The notes below the pieces were generated by a model, which saw nothing but the letters and a program-made list of their open reading frames with translations, ran no database searches and was not told where the DNA came from. This document shows positions 1 through 6,249 of a stretch of 6,249 nt of DNA, in pieces. The translations under genes were made by a program, and so were the position numbers. The stretch's first letter is position 1, and every line of letters begins with the position of its first letter. This DNA comes from Escherichia coli (GTDB taxonomy: Bacteria; Pseudomonadota; Gammaproteobacteria; Enterobacterales; Enterobacteriaceae), in the NCBI RefSeq assembly GCF_003334785.1, contig NZ_QOWV01000039.1, one strand, 5' to 3'.

Positions 1-49
1 GAATGGCCCTCCAACCGTGTTGACGAACTCCTGCCATGGAACGTAGTAC

Positions 50-379
50 TCACCAATAAATAAGCGTCAATACGGTGCTCCGTTGACGCTTACAGAGAAT
101 GCGTTTGACCGCCTCGCTATATACTTCCGAGCGTTCTCTTTTCCCAACAGAAATCACGAAAACGACAACTTTCTCGTCTATAACCTGGTATACAAGGCGA
201 TAGCCTGAAGACCGGAGCTTAATCTTGTAACAATCAGGCATACCACGGAGCTTGTTTGCTTCAATCCGGGGTGACTCAAGTACTTCAACCAGCTTCTTTT
301 TCAACTGTTCACGTACCGTCGAGCCCAGCTTTCGCCATTCCTTTAGTGCCCGCTCGTCAAAATCCAGAAAATACGCCAT
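50..379 (-). CDS. relE: RelE mRNA-interferase toxin (RelE/ParE family), 109 aa; first 95 aa match E. coli RelE as recalled, followed by a 14-aa C-terminal extension
   Basis: Translation MAYFLDFDERALKEWRKLGSTV...VYSEAVKRIL is recognisably RelE; start codon shares one base with the relB stop (TGATG); the gene sits directly downstream of relB on the same strand. Confidence 0.9.
   Translation of the reverse strand: MAYFLDFDERALKEWRKLGSTVREQLKKKLVEVLESPRIEANKLRGMPDCYKIKLRSSGYRLVYQVIDEKVVVFVISVGKRERSEVYSEAVKRILCKRQRSTVLTLIYW
53..91 (-). terminator. Stem-loop (9-bp stem 62-70/83-91, inner CGG/CCG pairs) followed on the minus strand by UAUUUAUU; probable terminator or mRNA fold at the relE 3' end
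   Basis: Inverted repeat AAGCGTCAA...TTGACGCTT read directly; U-rich tract follows on the minus strand. The extended relE ORF reads through it. Confidence 0.4.
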
Positions 380-618
380 CAGAGTTCATCCAGCGTCACA
401 CGTACTGGCTTAGGATTACGAAGCCGTTCTTTCACTATCTCCACAAGTTCAGCATCTTCATCACTCAGGAGTGTCTGTTTGAACGGCAAGCGTTCATTGT
501 CAGCGATATACTCGAGCATGAGACGAAGCGCTTCAGAAGGAGTTACACCCATTTTTTCAAGCGCGGCGTAAGAACGCGCTTTAAGTTCATCGTCAATACG
601 CAGGTTAATGCTACCCAT
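379..618 (-). CDS. relB: RelB antitoxin, 79 aa
   Basis: Translation MGSINLRIDDELKARSYA...PKPVRVTLDEL matches RelB as recalled; GAGGTG Shine-Dalgarno about 6 nt upstream of the ATG; overlaps the relE start. Confidence 0.92.
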   Translation of the reverse strand: MGSINLRIDDELKARSYAALEKMGVTPSEALRLMLEYIADNERLPFKQTLLSDEDAELVEIVKERLRNPKPVRVTLDEL

Positions 619-700
619 GTCTTACACCTCTTGTAATTACAAATGTCATTACAAGTATCGCACTACAACATGCTTAGGGCAAGTCACGAAGGAAGTCAGA
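619..700 (-). promoter_or_regulatory. relBE promoter region with relO-type operator (perfect 12-bp palindrome TTGTAATTACAA at 631-642, plus partial repeat to 655)
   Basis: Palindrome read directly, immediately upstream of relB; consistent with RelB/RelE autoregulation at an operator overlapping the promoter. Exact -35/-10 positions not resolved by eye. Confidence 0.6.
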
Positions 701-948
701 AAGTAGTCGTAAGAACGGTGATCACTGTCCGCTTTGTGCCAGGAGCAGCCATTGCTAAGTCCATCCTGTATTGTGCAGGTCAGCTCGTTTTTAAAGAGTC
801 CGGCCATCATCTTACTGGTACAGACACCATATACTTTGTGACGGTCAGGCTACATATGCACAACTCAACTTATTCATCTATTTTTTGCTTTAGCATGTCA
901 GTGTTGCTTTCTCGTCGGCGGGTGAGCGGTGACCTGACCTGTCGATAA
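643..948 (+). CDS. ydfV: Hypothetical protein, 101 aa, in the position and of the size of E. coli ydfV (divergent from relB)
   Basis: ORF of the expected length between relB and flxA; no recognisable Shine-Dalgarno; the start lies inside the relO operator. Protein sequence not independently recognised. Confidence 0.35.
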   Translation: MSLQVSHYNMLRASHEGSQKVVVRTVITVRFVPGAAIAKSILYCAGQLVFKESGHHLTGTDTIYFVTVRLHMHNSTYSSIFCFSMSVLLSRRRVSGDLTCR

Positions 949-1100
949 AGGAACGTAACACGTTTTATGCAACACCCGCATGCGGCAGAAAATTATTGCC
1001 GAACGTTTACCCCTGTCAACAAGCTTTACTTTCTGAGGCGCGCCAGCCCGCGAGGAAAACAATCTGAACATCAAACAATTAATGACACAAGAAATACGAT

Positions 1101-1127
1101 TAAAGATTTTTTTGTGCATGCCGATAG
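1101..1127 (+). promoter_or_regulatory. sigma28 (FliA)-type promoter: TAAAGATT, 11-bp spacer, GCCGATAG
   Basis: Matches the sigma28 consensus TAAAGTTT-N11-GCCGATAA at 7/8 and 7/8 with the exact spacer, about 24 bp upstream of the flxA start; flxA is a known FliA-dependent gene. Confidence 0.6.
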
Positions 1128-1150
1128 TGCTTTTTTAAAAGGAGAAATCT

Positions 1151-1483
1151 ATGTCTGTCACAATTCAGGGAAATACCTCAACCGTTATTTCAAACAACTC
1201 CGCCCCGGAAGGAACATCAGAAATAGCCAAAATCACAAGACAAATTCAGGTGCTGACTGAAAAGCTTGGGAAAATCTCATCGGAAGAGGGGATGACGACA
1301 CAGCAGAAAAAAGAAATGGCTGCATTGGTACAGAAGCAAATTGAAAGCCTCTGGGCTCAACTGGAGCAGTTGTTAAGGCAGCAGGCAGAGAAAAAGAATG
1401 AAGACGCGACAGTTCAGCCTGATAAAAAAGAAGAGAAAAAAGACGATACAAATACCGCTGGCACCATTGATATTTACGTCTAA
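1151..1483 (+). CDS. flxA: FlxA-like protein (FliA-regulated), 110 aa
   Basis: AAGGAG Shine-Dalgarno about 6 nt upstream of the ATG; translation MSVTIQGNTSTVISNNSAPEG... with a Q/E/K-rich coiled-coil-like centre; gene order relB-ydfV-flxA as in the Qin prophage. Confidence 0.85.
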   Translation: MSVTIQGNTSTVISNNSAPEGTSEIAKITRQIQVLTEKLGKISSEEGMTTQQKKEMAALVQKQIESLWAQLEQLLRQQAEKKNEDATVQPDKKEEKKDDTNTAGTIDIYV

Positions 1484-1497
1484 GTGACAGCCGTATT

Positions 1498-1522
1498 GTG
1501 GCCCTCATCGGGCCACTTTTCG
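1498..1522 (+). terminator. Rho-independent terminator downstream of flxA
   Basis: GTGGCCC-tcatc-GGGCCAC hairpin followed by TTTTC, 15 bp after the flxA stop. Confidence 0.6.
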
Positions 1523-1570
1523 CCATCAGCCTTTTCTTTAAAGACATATTATCTTTGTATCATTTCTGAT

Positions 1571-3419
1571 AGTTAACATTACAAGATATAAGTAATGGAC
1601 GCACTCCCAATTAGTCTATTTAAATCGCCACGAGTTTAACTGACAACCCATGATCAATTATGAATTGCAACTATTTCTGTAGTCACTTTTGTGGGGACAG
1701 TCCACAAAACTGCCAACTTCCGCTTCTTGCTCTTAGCGGACATTAGCATAGGCTATTTACCATAACGCCTCATTACGCGCACCGCCCAGACTGACTCAGC
1801 GCGTTTCTGGCATATCCCCGGTAAAACAAGTAACAAACCACCCGAAAATGAACACCAGAAACGCGACTTAAGAATCTACCCTATGAATGGATATGCACTC
1901 AACCGAATCGATCTTGGTTTCAATCTTTTTTATCGGGATCAGGCTTCTTTTTAGGTAACTTCGGGGGCTTAACTTGCTGATGACTTTGCGTTCGGCGCGT
2001 AAGCCAGGGATGGTCAGCTTTAGGTTTAACATAGTATTTTGAGCGTAAATCAATACGGGCATTATCCACTCGTTCATGGACACTCTTTTCATCATCCAGT
2101 GGTATAGGCTCCGGGCCATCAACATACTTTTCCCAGCCCAGCGCTTTCCCGTCATACAGAACGTTAATTTCACCGTCAAAGTTCTCGCATACAGTAACAA
2201 CCGAATGCCTAAGTCGATATCCCCGGCCCTCACTGCGTACCTGAAACGCACTGCTTTTGTACTGGAAAGTGAGATTTTTAGACAGAACGCGCTTCGCCTG
2301 TAGGCTGAAGATATAACCCAGTTCCTCTTCAGAATGGTGCACATCAAGATGAGCATTATCAGTAGTACGAGGCGACGTAGCGAACCGGTTGTTATAGGCT
2401 TCAATAAAGGTCGGCAACCATGCATTTGCTGTTTCAATATCACTGATATTCTGAAGCCGCATTTCTTTGACCAGCCTGTCCTGTAGTGTCTGATTGGCGC
2501 GCTCTACCCGCCCTTTTGCCTGCGGGCTGTTGGCATGGATTGGCTCGATGCCCAGTGTCTTTATCGCACGAGTGAACTGGGTCAGCTCACCTTCCCGCTC
2601 TGGGTTATTTACCCTGAATATACTGTGTCTATCAGAGTAGAGAGCGAGCGGTACGCCATGATCATTAAGGTAACCCCGGAGGGTTTCCATGTAAGCCCGG
2701 GTTGTTTCAGCAGGCACAAAACGCAACGCCATCAACGCACTGGTGGCATCATCAATGAAAACGATCAGTGTACATCTGGGGCCTCGATTTTCAAACCAGT
2801 CATGAGGTGAGCCATCAATCTGGATCAGTTCACCGTAAGATGGTCGTCGCATGCGGCGTTGATATATACGGGCAATTTTACGACGGCGTTCACGCCATAA
2901 CCCCTCTTCTATCATCCACTTTCTGAGAGTTTCAACGGATAAAGATAAACCGTGTATCTCGCGCAATTTTTCGCACGCAAACGTAGGTCCAAAATCAGCG
3001 TAACGGCCTTTGAGGAGTGAAATTACTGTTGCTCTGAATTCAGTAGAAAAGGAATTATTAGGACGCTTTCCACGTCGGTGGGAAACCAGACCAGAAGGCC
3101 CTTCATTTCTATACCGTTGCACCAGACGTTTAACCTGCCGAATAGAAATGCCAATGCGTGCCGCAGCTTGTTCCTGAATAATCTGAAGTCGGTGGAGTTC
3201 CTTATGACTCATCGTAACAGTCTCTTTGATCATGAAAAATCCCCCAGAGAATTGTCTGGGGACATTTTAGAATGGTTCAAAGGGGACATTACAGCTTGGT
3301 GTTAACAATAGCCTGCTTCTCCGTGCCTTTCGGCACGTAAGAGGCTAACCTACATGTGTCTAGCATGAAATTGGCCTCAGATTAATGTTAAGCGTCTTGC
3401 AGGACGCGTAATGTTAACT
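1571..3419 (-). mobile_element. ISNCY-family (IS1202-group-like) insertion sequence; boundaries tentative
   Basis: Boundaries are placed at a perfect 12-bp inverted repeat (AGTTAACATTAC at 1571-1582; GTAATGTTAACT at 3408-3419) bracketing the transposase gene. No target-site duplication was found and a 12-mer match could arise by chance in 6 kb. Confidence 0.35.
1920..3233 (-). CDS. ISNCY-family DDE transposase (IS481/IS1202-like), 437 aa
   Basis: N-terminal helix-turn-helix (AARIGISIRQVKRLVQRY); integrase-type catalytic core with D in IQIDGS, D in FIDDATS and E in SPQAKGRVERANQTL; lysine/proline-rich C-terminal tail. An alternative ATG at 3212 (MSHKEL...) is in frame. Confidence 0.9.
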   Translation of the reverse strand: MIKETVTMSHKELHRLQIIQEQAAARIGISIRQVKRLVQRYRNEGPSGLVSHRRGKRPNNSFSTEFRATVISLLKGRYADFGPTFACEKLREIHGLSLSVETLRKWMIEEGLWRERRRKIARIYQRRMRRPSYGELIQIDGSPHDWFENRGPRCTLIVFIDDATSALMALRFVPAETTRAYMETLRGYLNDHGVPLALYSDRHSIFRVNNPEREGELTQFTRAIKTLGIEPIHANSPQAKGRVERANQTLQDRLVKEMRLQNISDIETANAWLPTFIEAYNNRFATSPRTTDNAHLDVHHSEEELGYIFSLQAKRVLSKNLTFQYKSSAFQVRSEGRGYRLRHSVVTVCENFDGEINVLYDGKALGWEKYVDGPEPIPLDDEKSVHERVDNARIDLRSKYYVKPKADHPWLTRRTQSHQQVKPPKLPKKKPDPDKKD

Positions 3420-3567
3420 GGGGCTTTTCTCTATCTGCCGTTGGTGTCCATGCCCGAGGCAGATAGCCTCAAGCACCCGCAGTCATTCTACTTAACTAAG
3501 ATTTCCCCGCAAACCGTTTTTGTCCAGCACAGTAAATATCCAACTAAACCAATGGAGTTCGCTGTAT

Positions 3568-3747
3568 TTACCGCCAGTATTCAATGCACATGACCGCCAT
3601 GAACACCCCTAAAAAAAGGGCATTTATATATCCAAATATTAATATCAAAACATCAACTTTTTCCATATACCTTGCTGTGAAGATGATGGGCATACATGAT
3701 GCGAACAACCAGAACGCAACAAACAAAAACTGCAATGCGTTTTTCAT
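3568..3747 (-). CDS. Small hydrophobic membrane protein, 59 aa, two predicted transmembrane helices
   Basis: Consensus AGGAGG Shine-Dalgarno 5 nt upstream of the ATG at 3747; translation MKNALQFLFVAFWLFASCMPIIFTARYMEKVDVLILIFGYINALFLGVFMAVMCIEYWR. The ORF-track version (start 3786) has no ribosome-binding site. Confidence 0.45.
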   Translation of the reverse strand: MKNALQFLFVAFWLFASCMPIIFTARYMEKVDVLILIFGYINALFLGVFMAVMCIEYWR

Positions 3748-4001
3748 TATTCCTCCTACAATCAATGTGCAATTACATTTAAACACACCTCAATTTGGCC
3801 GGACATATAAATATCTAAACCAGAAAAAATCACTTACATAGCGTTACAAACTCTTTAGTCTAAAGGTTCATCGTAAAACATTCCCCATACTTATCAGTCC
3901 GTTCCGCGCCAGGTAGCTCATTGCCTTATCTGGCAACCTGTAATCAGGTTTCCGCTTTTTCAGTTGGCTGGTCGTTTAACCGACATAGTTAATCCATTAA
4001 T

Positions 4002-4289
4002 CTAGTTGCCGGATGTTGGTGGATTTTCGCGTTTTAGTTGTTCATAAAAGTGCACAGCTTTAACCAGTTCTTCTGATGTAACTGGGACTGGTGAGGCAGT
4101 GAATAAGGCCTGAATTTGATAGTTCGGCCTGTCGTTACAATCCTCTTTTTTCGGTACATATTTCCAGTCACCAGACCACTACTTCCCCTGAAAGTCCGTA
4201 ACGCCTTTTTTCACGTAGCGATATCGCCATGCCACTGGTTTTGCTTGCCCCGCCGTTTCATGCCCTTCCTGATAATTAATCTCGCTCAT
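4002..4289 (-). pseudogene. Small prophage-like ORF (about 95 codons) interrupted by an in-frame amber codon at 4179-4181
   Basis: Reads MSEINYQEGHETAGQAKPVAWRYRYVKKGVTDFQGK-TAG-WSGDWKYVPKKEDCNDRPNYQIQ...; its ATG overlaps the TGA of the upstream ORF (ATGA). Confidence 0.25.
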
Positions 4290-4477
4290 TCATCGCCCCA
4301 CTCATCACAATATGCTTCGACCGGAGTTTTTCCCGCTTCATAGTCATCACGCTAGGATTCGACATCAGCAGCACTTCCACCGCGTAACTCACCATAGTCC
4401 ATTAATAGTTCATCCCGCTCTTCAAAACTGATGTTATATTTAGCTGAACAAAAATCAGCCACTTTGTTCTTCCTCAT
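4286..4477 (-). pseudogene. Small acidic ORF (about 63 codons) interrupted by an in-frame amber codon at 4352-4354
   Basis: Reads MRKNKVADFCSAKYNISFEERDELLMDYGELRGGSAADVES-TAG-RDDYEAGKTPVEAYCDEWGDE; an internal GTG at codon 6 is preceded by GAGGAAG; stop overlaps the next start. Confidence 0.2.
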
Positions 4478-4899
4478 CGTCTTTTATTTCGTGGTATGAG
4501 TAATTGCAGTAGTTAAAGAAAATTTCTTATGCTCCGTCATGAATTTCCTCAGGTGTTGCGTCATCGTCCACTTCGAATACATCCTCAAAATCTCCACCAG
4601 CTATTCCCGTTTCAATAATAATTTTGAACTTTCGCATTTCACTACCGCCCTTTCGGGCGGCCTCCTGATGTTCTGAGGGTGCAGAAATCCATCCGGTTAA
4701 GGATTAAATTTTATTTACAGAACTGAATTTAATTATTCAGATATACGTATCTGTAGCCTTACGAATCTACTCACTGGATGCCTCTTTCATAAAAATAATC
4801 CAGTGGGTTTTATCGTTTTTTCCCTGTTCGTTGACAGATAACAGGTTTTCTGTCTGTCAGTGCCAGAATCTGGCTTACCGGTATTTGCGTTTCATTCCA

Positions 4900-5256
4900 T
4901 TAAAAAATCAGAACGCCGTGCGGCCTCAACACCCGAAAGGCTTCTTTAAATCTCTGTCGCGAATCATCACGCCAGGCATCTTTATTCAGCCGTCCATATT
5001 TCTTTCCCATCCAGGCGTTATCACCAACACTCTCAAGATGCGGAGGGTCTAATACAACCATCGAAAAAGATGCGTCTGCAAATGATAATGCACGAAAATC
5101 TGCGATAATGTCAGGGCTGATAATCAAGCGTCTCCCATTGCGTAATGTGTATCCTTCTTTTCTGATATCGCTGAATATCGCCCGTTCGTCAGACTTATCG
5201 AACCAGAACATGCGGCTGCCACAGCACATATCAAGAATGGTTGCCGGTGCACTCAC
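4900..5256 (-). CDS. Putative SAM-dependent methyltransferase (motif I ILDMCCGS; motif IV VVLDPPH), 118 aa; probably cut short by a premature TAA
   Basis: GTG start overlapping the stop of the upstream ORF; motif I and a DPPH motif about 55 residues apart, as in small N6-adenine/N4-cytosine-type methyltransferases; after the TAA at 4900-4902 the same frame stays open 29 codons (WNETQIPVSQILALTDRKPVICQRTGKKR). Confidence 0.6.
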   Translation of the reverse strand: MSAPATILDMCCGSRMFWFDKSDERAIFSDIRKEGYTLRNGRRLIISPDIIADFRALSFADASFSMVVLDPPHLESVGDNAWMGKKYGRLNKDAWRDDSRQRFKEAFRVLRPHGVLIF

Positions 5257-5519
5257 TGCGCCACGTCCTGAAAATTACCCTGATAGAAAGCCAGTATGCG
5301 CTGCATAACTTCGCTCTTCCGGCACTCGCGACAGATTATGTTTAGGCGACTGTCGTAGCGACGTATTTCTCCGTCAGGTGATGACCAGATAAGGTCCGGA
5401 TCAACCACAGCAGGTTTCTTCACCTTTGCCCTCGAGAGTTTTTTGCGGGCGTTTTGCCAGTCCTTACGCGCCTGTTCAGAGGGGAATAACCCGTATCCGG
5501 AGCTTAAGTTGCACGCCAT
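5253..5519 (-). CDS. Hypothetical basic protein, 88 aa (contains CRECRK), coupled to the methyltransferase gene
   Basis: Stop overlaps the methyltransferase GTG start (GTGA); no clear Shine-Dalgarno; its 5' end overlaps the longest version of the opposite-strand ORF. Confidence 0.3.
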   Translation of the reverse strand: MACNLSSGYGLFPSEQARKDWQNARKKLSRAKVKKPAVVDPDLIWSSPDGEIRRYDSRLNIICRECRKSEVMQRILAFYQGNFQDVAQ

Positions 5520-5892
5520 TGGGTGGGTTAAGCATAAATGTATTCCTGGTGCTAAATGGCCCGAAATTCAGGCAGAGATGCGCATCTGGAAAAAACGTCG
5601 CGAAGGTGAACGCAAGGAAACCGGAAAATACACGTCTGTTGTTGATCTCGCCCGCGCCAGAGCCAATCAACAGTACACTGAAAATTCAACAGGAAAAATC
5701 AGCCCGGTCATTGCTGCCATTCATCGCGAATACAAGCAGACATGGAAAACACTGGATGACGAACTGGCCTACGCTCTCTGGCCTAGTGATGTGGATGCCG
5801 GAAACATTGACGGCAGCATCCATCGCTGGGCAAAAAAAGAAGTTATCGACAACGACCGCGAAGACTGGAAGCGTGAGGTGTACTGGCAATAG
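5443..5892 (+). CDS. Hypothetical protein of unknown function (149 aa from TTG 5443; alternative starts TTG 5509 with a GGAG site, or ATG 5578)
   Basis: Long open frame with mixed charged composition (…KISPVIAAIHREYKQTWKTLDDELAYALWPSDVDAGNIDGSIHRWAKKEVIDNDREDWKREVYWQ); the 3' end abuts or lies within the IS3-family terminus. Confidence 0.45.
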   Translation: MRAFCQSLRACSEGNNPYPELKLHAIGWVKHKCIPGAKWPEIQAEMRIWKKRREGERKETGKYTSVVDLARARANQQYTENSTGKISPVIAAIHREYKQTWKTLDDELAYALWPSDVDAGNIDGSIHRWAKKEVIDNDREDWKREVYWQ

Positions 5893-6249
5893 CGGACACT
5901 ACCATTTGTTCTTTTTTTAAGCAGCCATCTGATGATATTTTTCCCTGAAGGCTGCCGGGGAGATATTCCCCAGACGAGAGTGACGACGCTGACGATTGTA
6001 GAAAATCTCAATGTATTCCCGTATTACTGAGATGGCTTCATCCCGGTTATTAAAACGATAGTGGCTCAGGCTCTCATTTTTCAGCGTTCCCCAGAAGCTT
6101 TCCATCGGAGCGTTGTCGTAACAGTTACCTTTACGCGACATTGATGTTTTCAGACCAAACTGCTCCTGTATGACCCGGTAATCGTATGCGCAGTACTGTG
6201 AACCTCGATCGGAGTGGTGGATTAGCACGGCAGGTGGGCGCTGGCTCCT
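5874..6249 (-). mobile_element. IS3-family insertion sequence, partial (continues beyond window); terminus near 5874-5900
   Basis: Transposase OrfB C-terminus ends at 5917; the adjacent GGCAATAGCGGACAC (5885-5899) resembles the IS3 terminal repeat as recalled (GCAATAGTGGACAC). Exact terminal base uncertain by about 10 bp. Confidence 0.6.
5917..6249 (-). CDS. IS3-family transposase OrfB (integrase core), C-terminal part; 5' end lies outside the window
   Basis: Translation ...VLIHHSDRGSQYCAYDYR...MSRKGNCYDNAPMESFWGTLKNE...YNRQRRHSRLGNISPAAF carries the IS3-family DDE-region signatures (HSDRGSQY; KGNCYDNAPMESF); the frame stays open to the window edge. Confidence 0.9.
   Translation of the reverse strand, partial: RSQRPPAVLIHHSDRGSQYCAYDYRVIQEQFGLKTSMSRKGNCYDNAPMESFWGTLKNESLSHYRFNNRDEAISVIREYIEIFYNRQRRHSRLGNISPAAFREKYHQMAA

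Follow-up and report, generated by a model that had tools for sequence, protein, structure and literature searches.

We asked why the relE toxin gene at the edge of an E. coli contig, which in E. coli K-12 stops after codon 95, is read here for another 14 codons. The window, i.e. the whole stretch of DNA that was analysed, is the entire 6,249-bp contig QOWV01000039.1 of the E. coli draft assembly GCA_003334785.1. As set out below, the extended gene very probably arose when an IS66-family element (ISEc47-like, ~2.5 kb) transposed once into the relE TGA of a Qin-type prophage in one E. coli isolate.

The extended relE frame and its operon

The open reading frame at 50..379 on the minus strand translates into 109 aa. 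Its first 95 codons (95..379, minus strand) are the native and unchanged relE, based on the translation and on DNA identity, with Leu95 encoded by CTC at 95-97. Across these codons the DNA is 100% identical to K-12, ATCC 8739 and FORC 064, and residues 1-95 are identical to the E. coli RelE in PDB 4V7K/4FXE (E = 3e-57). They equally match the 95-aa RELE_ECOLI, with which the product shares a 90% cluster. The first-pass annotation had given the canonical RelE as a protein of 95 aa ending in EAVKRIL, and this agrees with both RELE_ECOLI and PDB 4V7K. The 109-aa product is recorded with Pfam PF05016 (ParE_toxin). The residues K52, K54, R61, R81 and Y87 as well as the pair R93/E14, which anchors helix α3, all occupy their expected positions in the 109-aa RelE (for their roles see PMC2807027 and PMC3507626). 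The C-terminus is where the product departs from the canonical protein: RelE ends at L95 right after helix α3, whereas here TGT replaces the stop codon and 14 residues are added. The 109-aa ORF is a relE allele with an altered end and does not constitute a separate family.

The read-through extension covers 50..94 on the minus strand. Following the residues shared with K-12 RelE, the frame adds the 14 residues CKRQRSTVLTLIYW and closes at a new TGA at 50-52; the loss of the stop to TGT at 92-94 and the tail itself had been described correctly by the first-pass annotation. Codon 96 (TGT, 92-94) is chimeric: base 94 is the T of the former TGA and bases 93-92 are the GT that opens the IS terminus GTAAGCG. 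Codons 97-109 (53-91) come from the right end of the IS, read antisense, and translation of the ISEc47 right end in phase 1 yields xKRQRSTVLTLIYW*. These 13 antisense codons cross the right inverted repeat of the IS and then the last 4 codons and the stop of tnpC. Both the sequence and the length of the tail are thus set by the end, the orientation and the phase of the IS. Given the base composition of the window, a stop is expected after 19.6 codons on average, so that a run-on of 14 codons is unremarkable and lies below the chance expectation (~20). The tail carries a net charge of +3; its first half is hydrophilic and basic and its last half is hydrophobic.

The antitoxin gene relB (379..618, minus strand) is intact and encodes 79 aa. 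It shares an ATGA-type one-base overlap with the relE start at 379. Its DNA is 100% identical to K-12 and ATCC 8739, where it is annotated as relB, and its product matches Pfam PF04221 (RelB). The relB and relE coding sequences and the upstream region correspond to K-12 base for base. Compared with K-12 RelE (b1563) and the relBE(-hokD/relF) operon of the cryptic prophage Qin, we find the same residues 1-95, the same gene order and the same prophage context, and 100% DNA identity beginning at the T of the stop codon and continuing across relB, ydfV and flxA. The window differs from K-12 in the destroyed stop codon, in the 14 IS-encoded residues added to RelE and in hokD, which is no longer adjacent.

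Origin of the junction at base 93

A 700-base query was compared with 5,426 complete E. coli genomes and its matches fell into two parts: many strains carry relE-relB-ydfV with 100% identity to bases 93-700, and in thousands of records the 3' ends of IS66-family transposase genes align with bases 1-93/94. Intact relE-relB-ydfV-flxA loci read ggtTCAgagaatg at the position where the window reads cttaCAgagaatg, and K-12, ATCC 8739 and FORC 064 all read ...ggtTCAgagaatgcg... at the end of relE. In a wider view the intact loci (K-12 MG1655, ATCC 8739, FORC 064) show ...gctttggtTCAgagaatgcg..., in which TCA is the reverse complement of the TGA stop, and the counterpart in the window is ...gttgacgcttaCAgagaatgcg.... 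Going left, identity to the intact locus ends at base 93; going right, identity to ISEc47 ends at base 94. The two joined sequences therefore overlap by 1-2 bases, with C at 93 and A at 94 fitting both. Left of base 93 the window does not resemble the relE-hokD spacer of the intact loci in K-12, ATCC 8739 or FORC 064 at all. The alignment to K-12 that the first-pass annotation had proposed as a check thus speaks against the event it had in mind: K-12 keeps its native TGA and its 3' flank is unrelated to the window left of 93.

Bases 1..93 (plus strand) form the right end of an IS66-family (ISEc47-like) element and consist of the end of tnpC and the right terminal inverted repeat, ending in ...ACGCTTAC at 93. 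The last 20 tnpC codons lie at 1-60 on the plus strand and are followed by the stop TAA at 61-63. Bases 1-94 are 100% identical to ISEc47 (E. coli O111:H8 copy), and the same end is 92-99% identical to ISEc23/ISEc43 and other E. coli IS66-family elements. In matching DNA with 100% identity the protein at 1-63 is annotated as 'IS66-like element ISEc47 family transposase'. The likeness to ISEc47/ISEc23/ISEc43 (tnpA-tnpB-tnpC) extends over the tnpC C-terminus, the terminal GTAAGCG and an internal palindrome. As the contig ends inside the element, the IS is visible by its terminal 93 bases alone. With tnpC on the plus strand, tnpC and relE are convergent; the tnpC stop TAA (61-63, plus strand) and the stop TGA of the extended relE (50-52, minus strand) let the two frames overlap by 14 bases (50-63).

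The exact terminus can be placed by means of a complete copy. The reference ISEc47 (E. coli O111:H8) is complete with 2,532 bp, ends in GTAAGCGT.../...ACGCTTAC and is directly abutted on both sides by a perfect 8-bp target duplication, AAACATCG. On the minus strand of the window, bases 93-87 read GTAAGCG and match both ends of this complete copy. In an alignment of six further IS66-family copies the shared sequence reaches up to GTAAGCG and the flanks beyond are unrelated. IS66-family inverted repeats begin with GTAAGCG and 8-bp direct repeats are typical for the family (PMC11946415). Because the reference ISEc47 ends there and the flanks diverge exactly before GTAAGCG, the IS terminus is base 93.

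We propose the following course of events. An IS66-family element would have landed inside the TGA of relE, with its tnpC convergent with relE. Its terminus GTAAGCG abuts the retained T of the stop codon and turns it into TGT, and the relE frame reads antisense through the right end of the IS up to the first in-frame stop. The IS sitting inside the TGA, with its end read antisense, accounts at once for the lost stop, the tail and the 'downstream hairpin' mentioned in the first-pass annotation. Since the stop codon itself was hit, the coding sequence is fully kept and extended instead of truncated. A simple insertion further predicts a left junction in which ...TTGGTTCAGAGAATG is directly followed by GTAAGCGTAAACTG... 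(in a longer reading, TTGGTTCAGAGAATG followed by GTAAGCGTAAACTGACC), with AGAGAATG duplicated. The predicted 8-bp target-site duplication AGAGAATG would lie at 94..101, as derived from the geometry of the reference ISEc47, and its second copy would stand beside the left end of the IS, off the contig. The mechanism of the extension, a frame running into an IS end up to the first stop, is the same as in generic fusion ORFs created by IS insertions, which are routine; relE::IS is unusual among them in keeping the entire coding sequence. As the third gene of relBEF, hokD/relF shares a full-length relBEF mRNA with relBE (PMC3598666). If the insertion is simple, it is nearly certain that hokD/relF has been parted from the relB promoter by an IS of ~2.5 kb.

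The junction could also be real and have arisen in another way, namely by an IS66-mediated deletion or inversion or by recombination between IS copies, in which case hokD and the duplication would not be found across the element. The left end of the IS is off the contig, the prophage carries other IS elements and E. coli genomes tend to have IS66-type ends in more than one place (a median of 2 and a maximum of 42 per genome), all of which would allow for such a rearrangement. The right side of the junction is, however, perfectly collinear with the intact loci and nothing speaks specifically against a rearrangement; we consider it unlikely. An assembly artefact, where the first 93 bases were misjoined at the contig end and the real relE stop is intact, is very unlikely. 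Each end of the draft contig does lie in a repeat (IS66 left, IS600 right), but the break coincides exactly with the true IS terminus GTAAGCG, as expected for a real transposition. A contig that breaks shortly inside a multicopy IS should also be the normal short-read signature of a real insertion, and with only 1-2 shared bases a false path via a shared k-mer appears implausible and reads should span the join.

To assess how rare the allele is, we searched with a 151-bp query across the join. No record spanning the junction was found among 5,426 complete E. coli genomes, 72,556 PLSDB plasmids and 50,697 INPHARED phage records (0 in each case), and an insertion of this kind of element at the relE stop, which sets the window apart from the ISEc47/ISEc23/ISEc43 copies, was not found in any other record searched. 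The exact-sequence look-up for the 109-aa protein (RCR35064.1 / WP_114476282.1) returned 1 contig, QOWV01000039.1, compared with at least 1,000 contigs for the 95-aa RelE. The 109-aa protein is thus not a common reference form, in line with the first-pass annotation. A literature search by assembly and protein accession found no mention of it. We also noticed that the 90%-identity cluster of RelE (722 members) lists a 51-aa HokD protein; the sequences are unrelated and its presence is presumably a clustering or bookkeeping artefact.

These figures bear on a reading in which the protein is a selected natural long isoform of RelE with a functional tail. The tail is basic and then hydrophobic (net +3) and sits on a helix that contacts rRNA. 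Nevertheless the 109-aa form is a singleton, all ten other cluster members that were aligned (10/10) end at L95, and the tail is an accidental antisense reading of a transposon end that any ORF hit in the same phase would gain. We regard this reading as highly improbable; the allele occurs once, in a prophage where ISNCY and IS600 elements have already inserted, and shows no sign of selection. The event assumed by the first-pass annotation, namely that one base of the relE stop was substituted or an extra one inserted and that the frame then enters the 3' flank of relE itself, has practically no probability left: TGA to TGT does locally resemble a single-base change and the junction bases C 93 and A 94 fit both sequences, but nothing left of 93 resembles the native relE-hokD spacer, that part being 100% ISEc47 right end including the tnpC C-terminus, and the alignment to K-12, ATCC 8739, FORC 064 and ISEc47 refutes a mutation of the stop codon.

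The palindrome and the predicted effect of the tail

The palindrome or potential hairpin GTAAGCGTCAACGG-AGCA-CCGTATTGACGCTTAT (in minus-strand reading) lies at 60..93 inside the right inverted repeat of the IS. On the minus strand (93-60) it forms 14 pairs with a 2-nt bulge, and a segment of 71 nt folds at -20.8 kcal/mol (z = -2.4). Every aligned IS66-family right end has it, and the spacer between relE and hokD in native loci does not. The extension does contain the downstream hairpin of the first-pass annotation, yet this hairpin lies within an IS inverted repeat that the native locus lacks and is not a terminator of relE or relBEF. A scan of 1-760 for promoter and terminator consensus sequences gave no hits, where the bulged stem falls outside the rules of the scan. 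The palindrome is invariant in 6/7 IS66-family copies. In the divergent copy (L007, from E. coli strain 10) three bases within or beside the stem are substituted without compensation. We detected no covariation of the palindrome among the aligned IS66-family right ends, which are nearly invariant. From the invariance and the uncompensated changes in strain 10 it follows that the palindrome looks like inverted-repeat or transposase-binding DNA and not like a selected RNA hairpin. On the plus strand no T-run follows the palindrome downstream of tnpC, and transposase transcripts could therefore run out antisense into relE. It is speculation that such a tnpC read-through makes antisense RNA to relE.

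Two more far-reaching consequences were considered. Either the IS palindrome together with UUUAUUGG acts as an inward-facing intrinsic terminator that silences RelE, or the +3/hydrophobic tail alters the ribosome binding or the codon preference of RelE; we hold this pair of options to be very doubtful. If there were such a terminator, relBE transcripts would end at ~59-51, i.e. before or within the new TGA (50-52), and the resulting non-stop relBE mRNA would lead to RelE that is tmRNA-tagged and degraded. An IS hit in the stop codon would then silence the toxin post-translationally and leave the autoregulation by relB intact.

We now return to the extended protein that a plain IS insertion into the stop codon would produce. 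No part of RelE is more flexible than helix α3 (residues 85-95), the helix that bears Tyr87. This tyrosine stacks on the second A-site base, and cleavage depends on it. Arg93-Glu14 fastens α3 to the RelE core, α3 and α1 jointly contact the 16S h31 region, and binding of RelB displaces α3, which then becomes disordered (PMC3507626; PMC2807027). The suggestion of the first-pass annotation that the toxicity may be weakened or altered is a reasonable prediction because the tail is fused to helix α3 with its Tyr87 (PMC3507626; PMC2807027). The tail could disturb the docking of α3, the fit into the A site or the stability of the protein. As RelB expels α3 anyway, the tail is unlikely to block the binding of RelB.

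We used these properties to predict the behaviour of the 109-aa RelE. The chances are about even that RelB still neutralises it and that the activity or stability of the toxin is reduced and not enhanced. It is also quite conceivable, though with somewhat less than an even chance, that the protein is essentially unchanged and that the tail has no material effect. Any other outcome would be rather surprising. An AlphaFold2 model based on a shallow alignment has low confidence overall (mean pLDDT 58.8); it recovered the secondary structure of RelE and modelled residues 96-109 as coil with pLDDT < 50, which gives weak support to a floppy, unstructured tail. In the literature the tagged RelE of ribosome complexes is named both 'His6-RelE' and 'RelB-RelE-His6'.

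Prophage context and significance

The remainder of the window places the allele in an IS-ridden cryptic prophage of the Qin type, and in this respect the decaying prophage that the first-pass annotation had suspected is borne out. Compared with K-12 there is no mismatch over 93-2104, where collinearity ends. Compared with FORC 064 we counted 2 mismatches over 93-6249, at 6211 and 6227, both of them in the terminal IS600 repeat. FORC 064 has an intact relE followed by hokD. Its near-identity combined with the intact relE/hokD therefore makes it an 'empty-site' version of this prophage haplotype; at the relE locus nothing but the IS66 insertion sets the window apart from FORC 064. The two mismatches fall into the last 40 bases, as would fit another IS600 copy or a repeat collapsed at the contig edge. 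The segment 1480-6249 is 100% identical in many complete genomes, and 456 of them cover at least 80% of it.

The distribution of the two parts of the 700-base query differs. The relE-relB-ydfV segment (93-700) was found with at least 80% coverage in ~1,200 of the 5,426 complete E. coli genomes. At least one match to the query was obtained in 4,716/5,426 genomes, mostly to the IS66-type end. The relBE locus is itself an accessory one, and far more genomes carry the IS than the target that it hit.

Several other elements of the prophage are worth recording. At 5917-6249 an IS3-family (IS600) transposase gene is represented by its 3' part, which means that both contig ends are IS copies. An ISNCY-type transposase ORF of 437 aa (1920-3233, minus strand) is uninterrupted in the window. 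This full-length ORF lies downstream of flxA, where the Qin prophage of K-12 has only a remnant. The K-12/RefSeq gene 'ydfW' (49 aa; 4175-4324 in the K-12 locus L004) maps to 1920-2069 and shares the stop of the 437-aa ORF, so YdfW is the C-terminal remnant of an ISNCY-type transposase. For identical DNA in FORC 064, PGAP calls a 'partial' ISNCY pseudogene and a separate ydfW. Around the 437-aa ORF we found no convincing terminal inverted repeats. Prophage debris occupies 3300-5900, from the ISNCY ORF to IS600. It includes an ORF for a 118-aa class I SAM-dependent methyltransferase (4900-5256, minus strand) and a DUF977 fragment (5253-5519, minus strand). The FORC 064 DNA identical to 3300-5900 holds frameshifted or internally stopped pseudogenes, among them one for a DUF7167 protein.

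Overall the finding is ordinary, an allele created once by IS insertion and located at the edge of a contig, and both RelE and the IS66 family are thoroughly known. What looks like a 'lost stop codon' in a familiar toxin gene is the junction with an IS, and this matters little beyond annotation: WP_114476282.1 (109 aa, 'RelE/ParE family toxin') is to be read as a fusion of RelE with an IS66 end and not as a natural long form. The allele could serve to ask whether RelE tolerates a C-terminal extension on helix α3. For the prophage it is a further example of IS-driven decay of the Qin type and of the uncoupling of hokD from the relB promoter.
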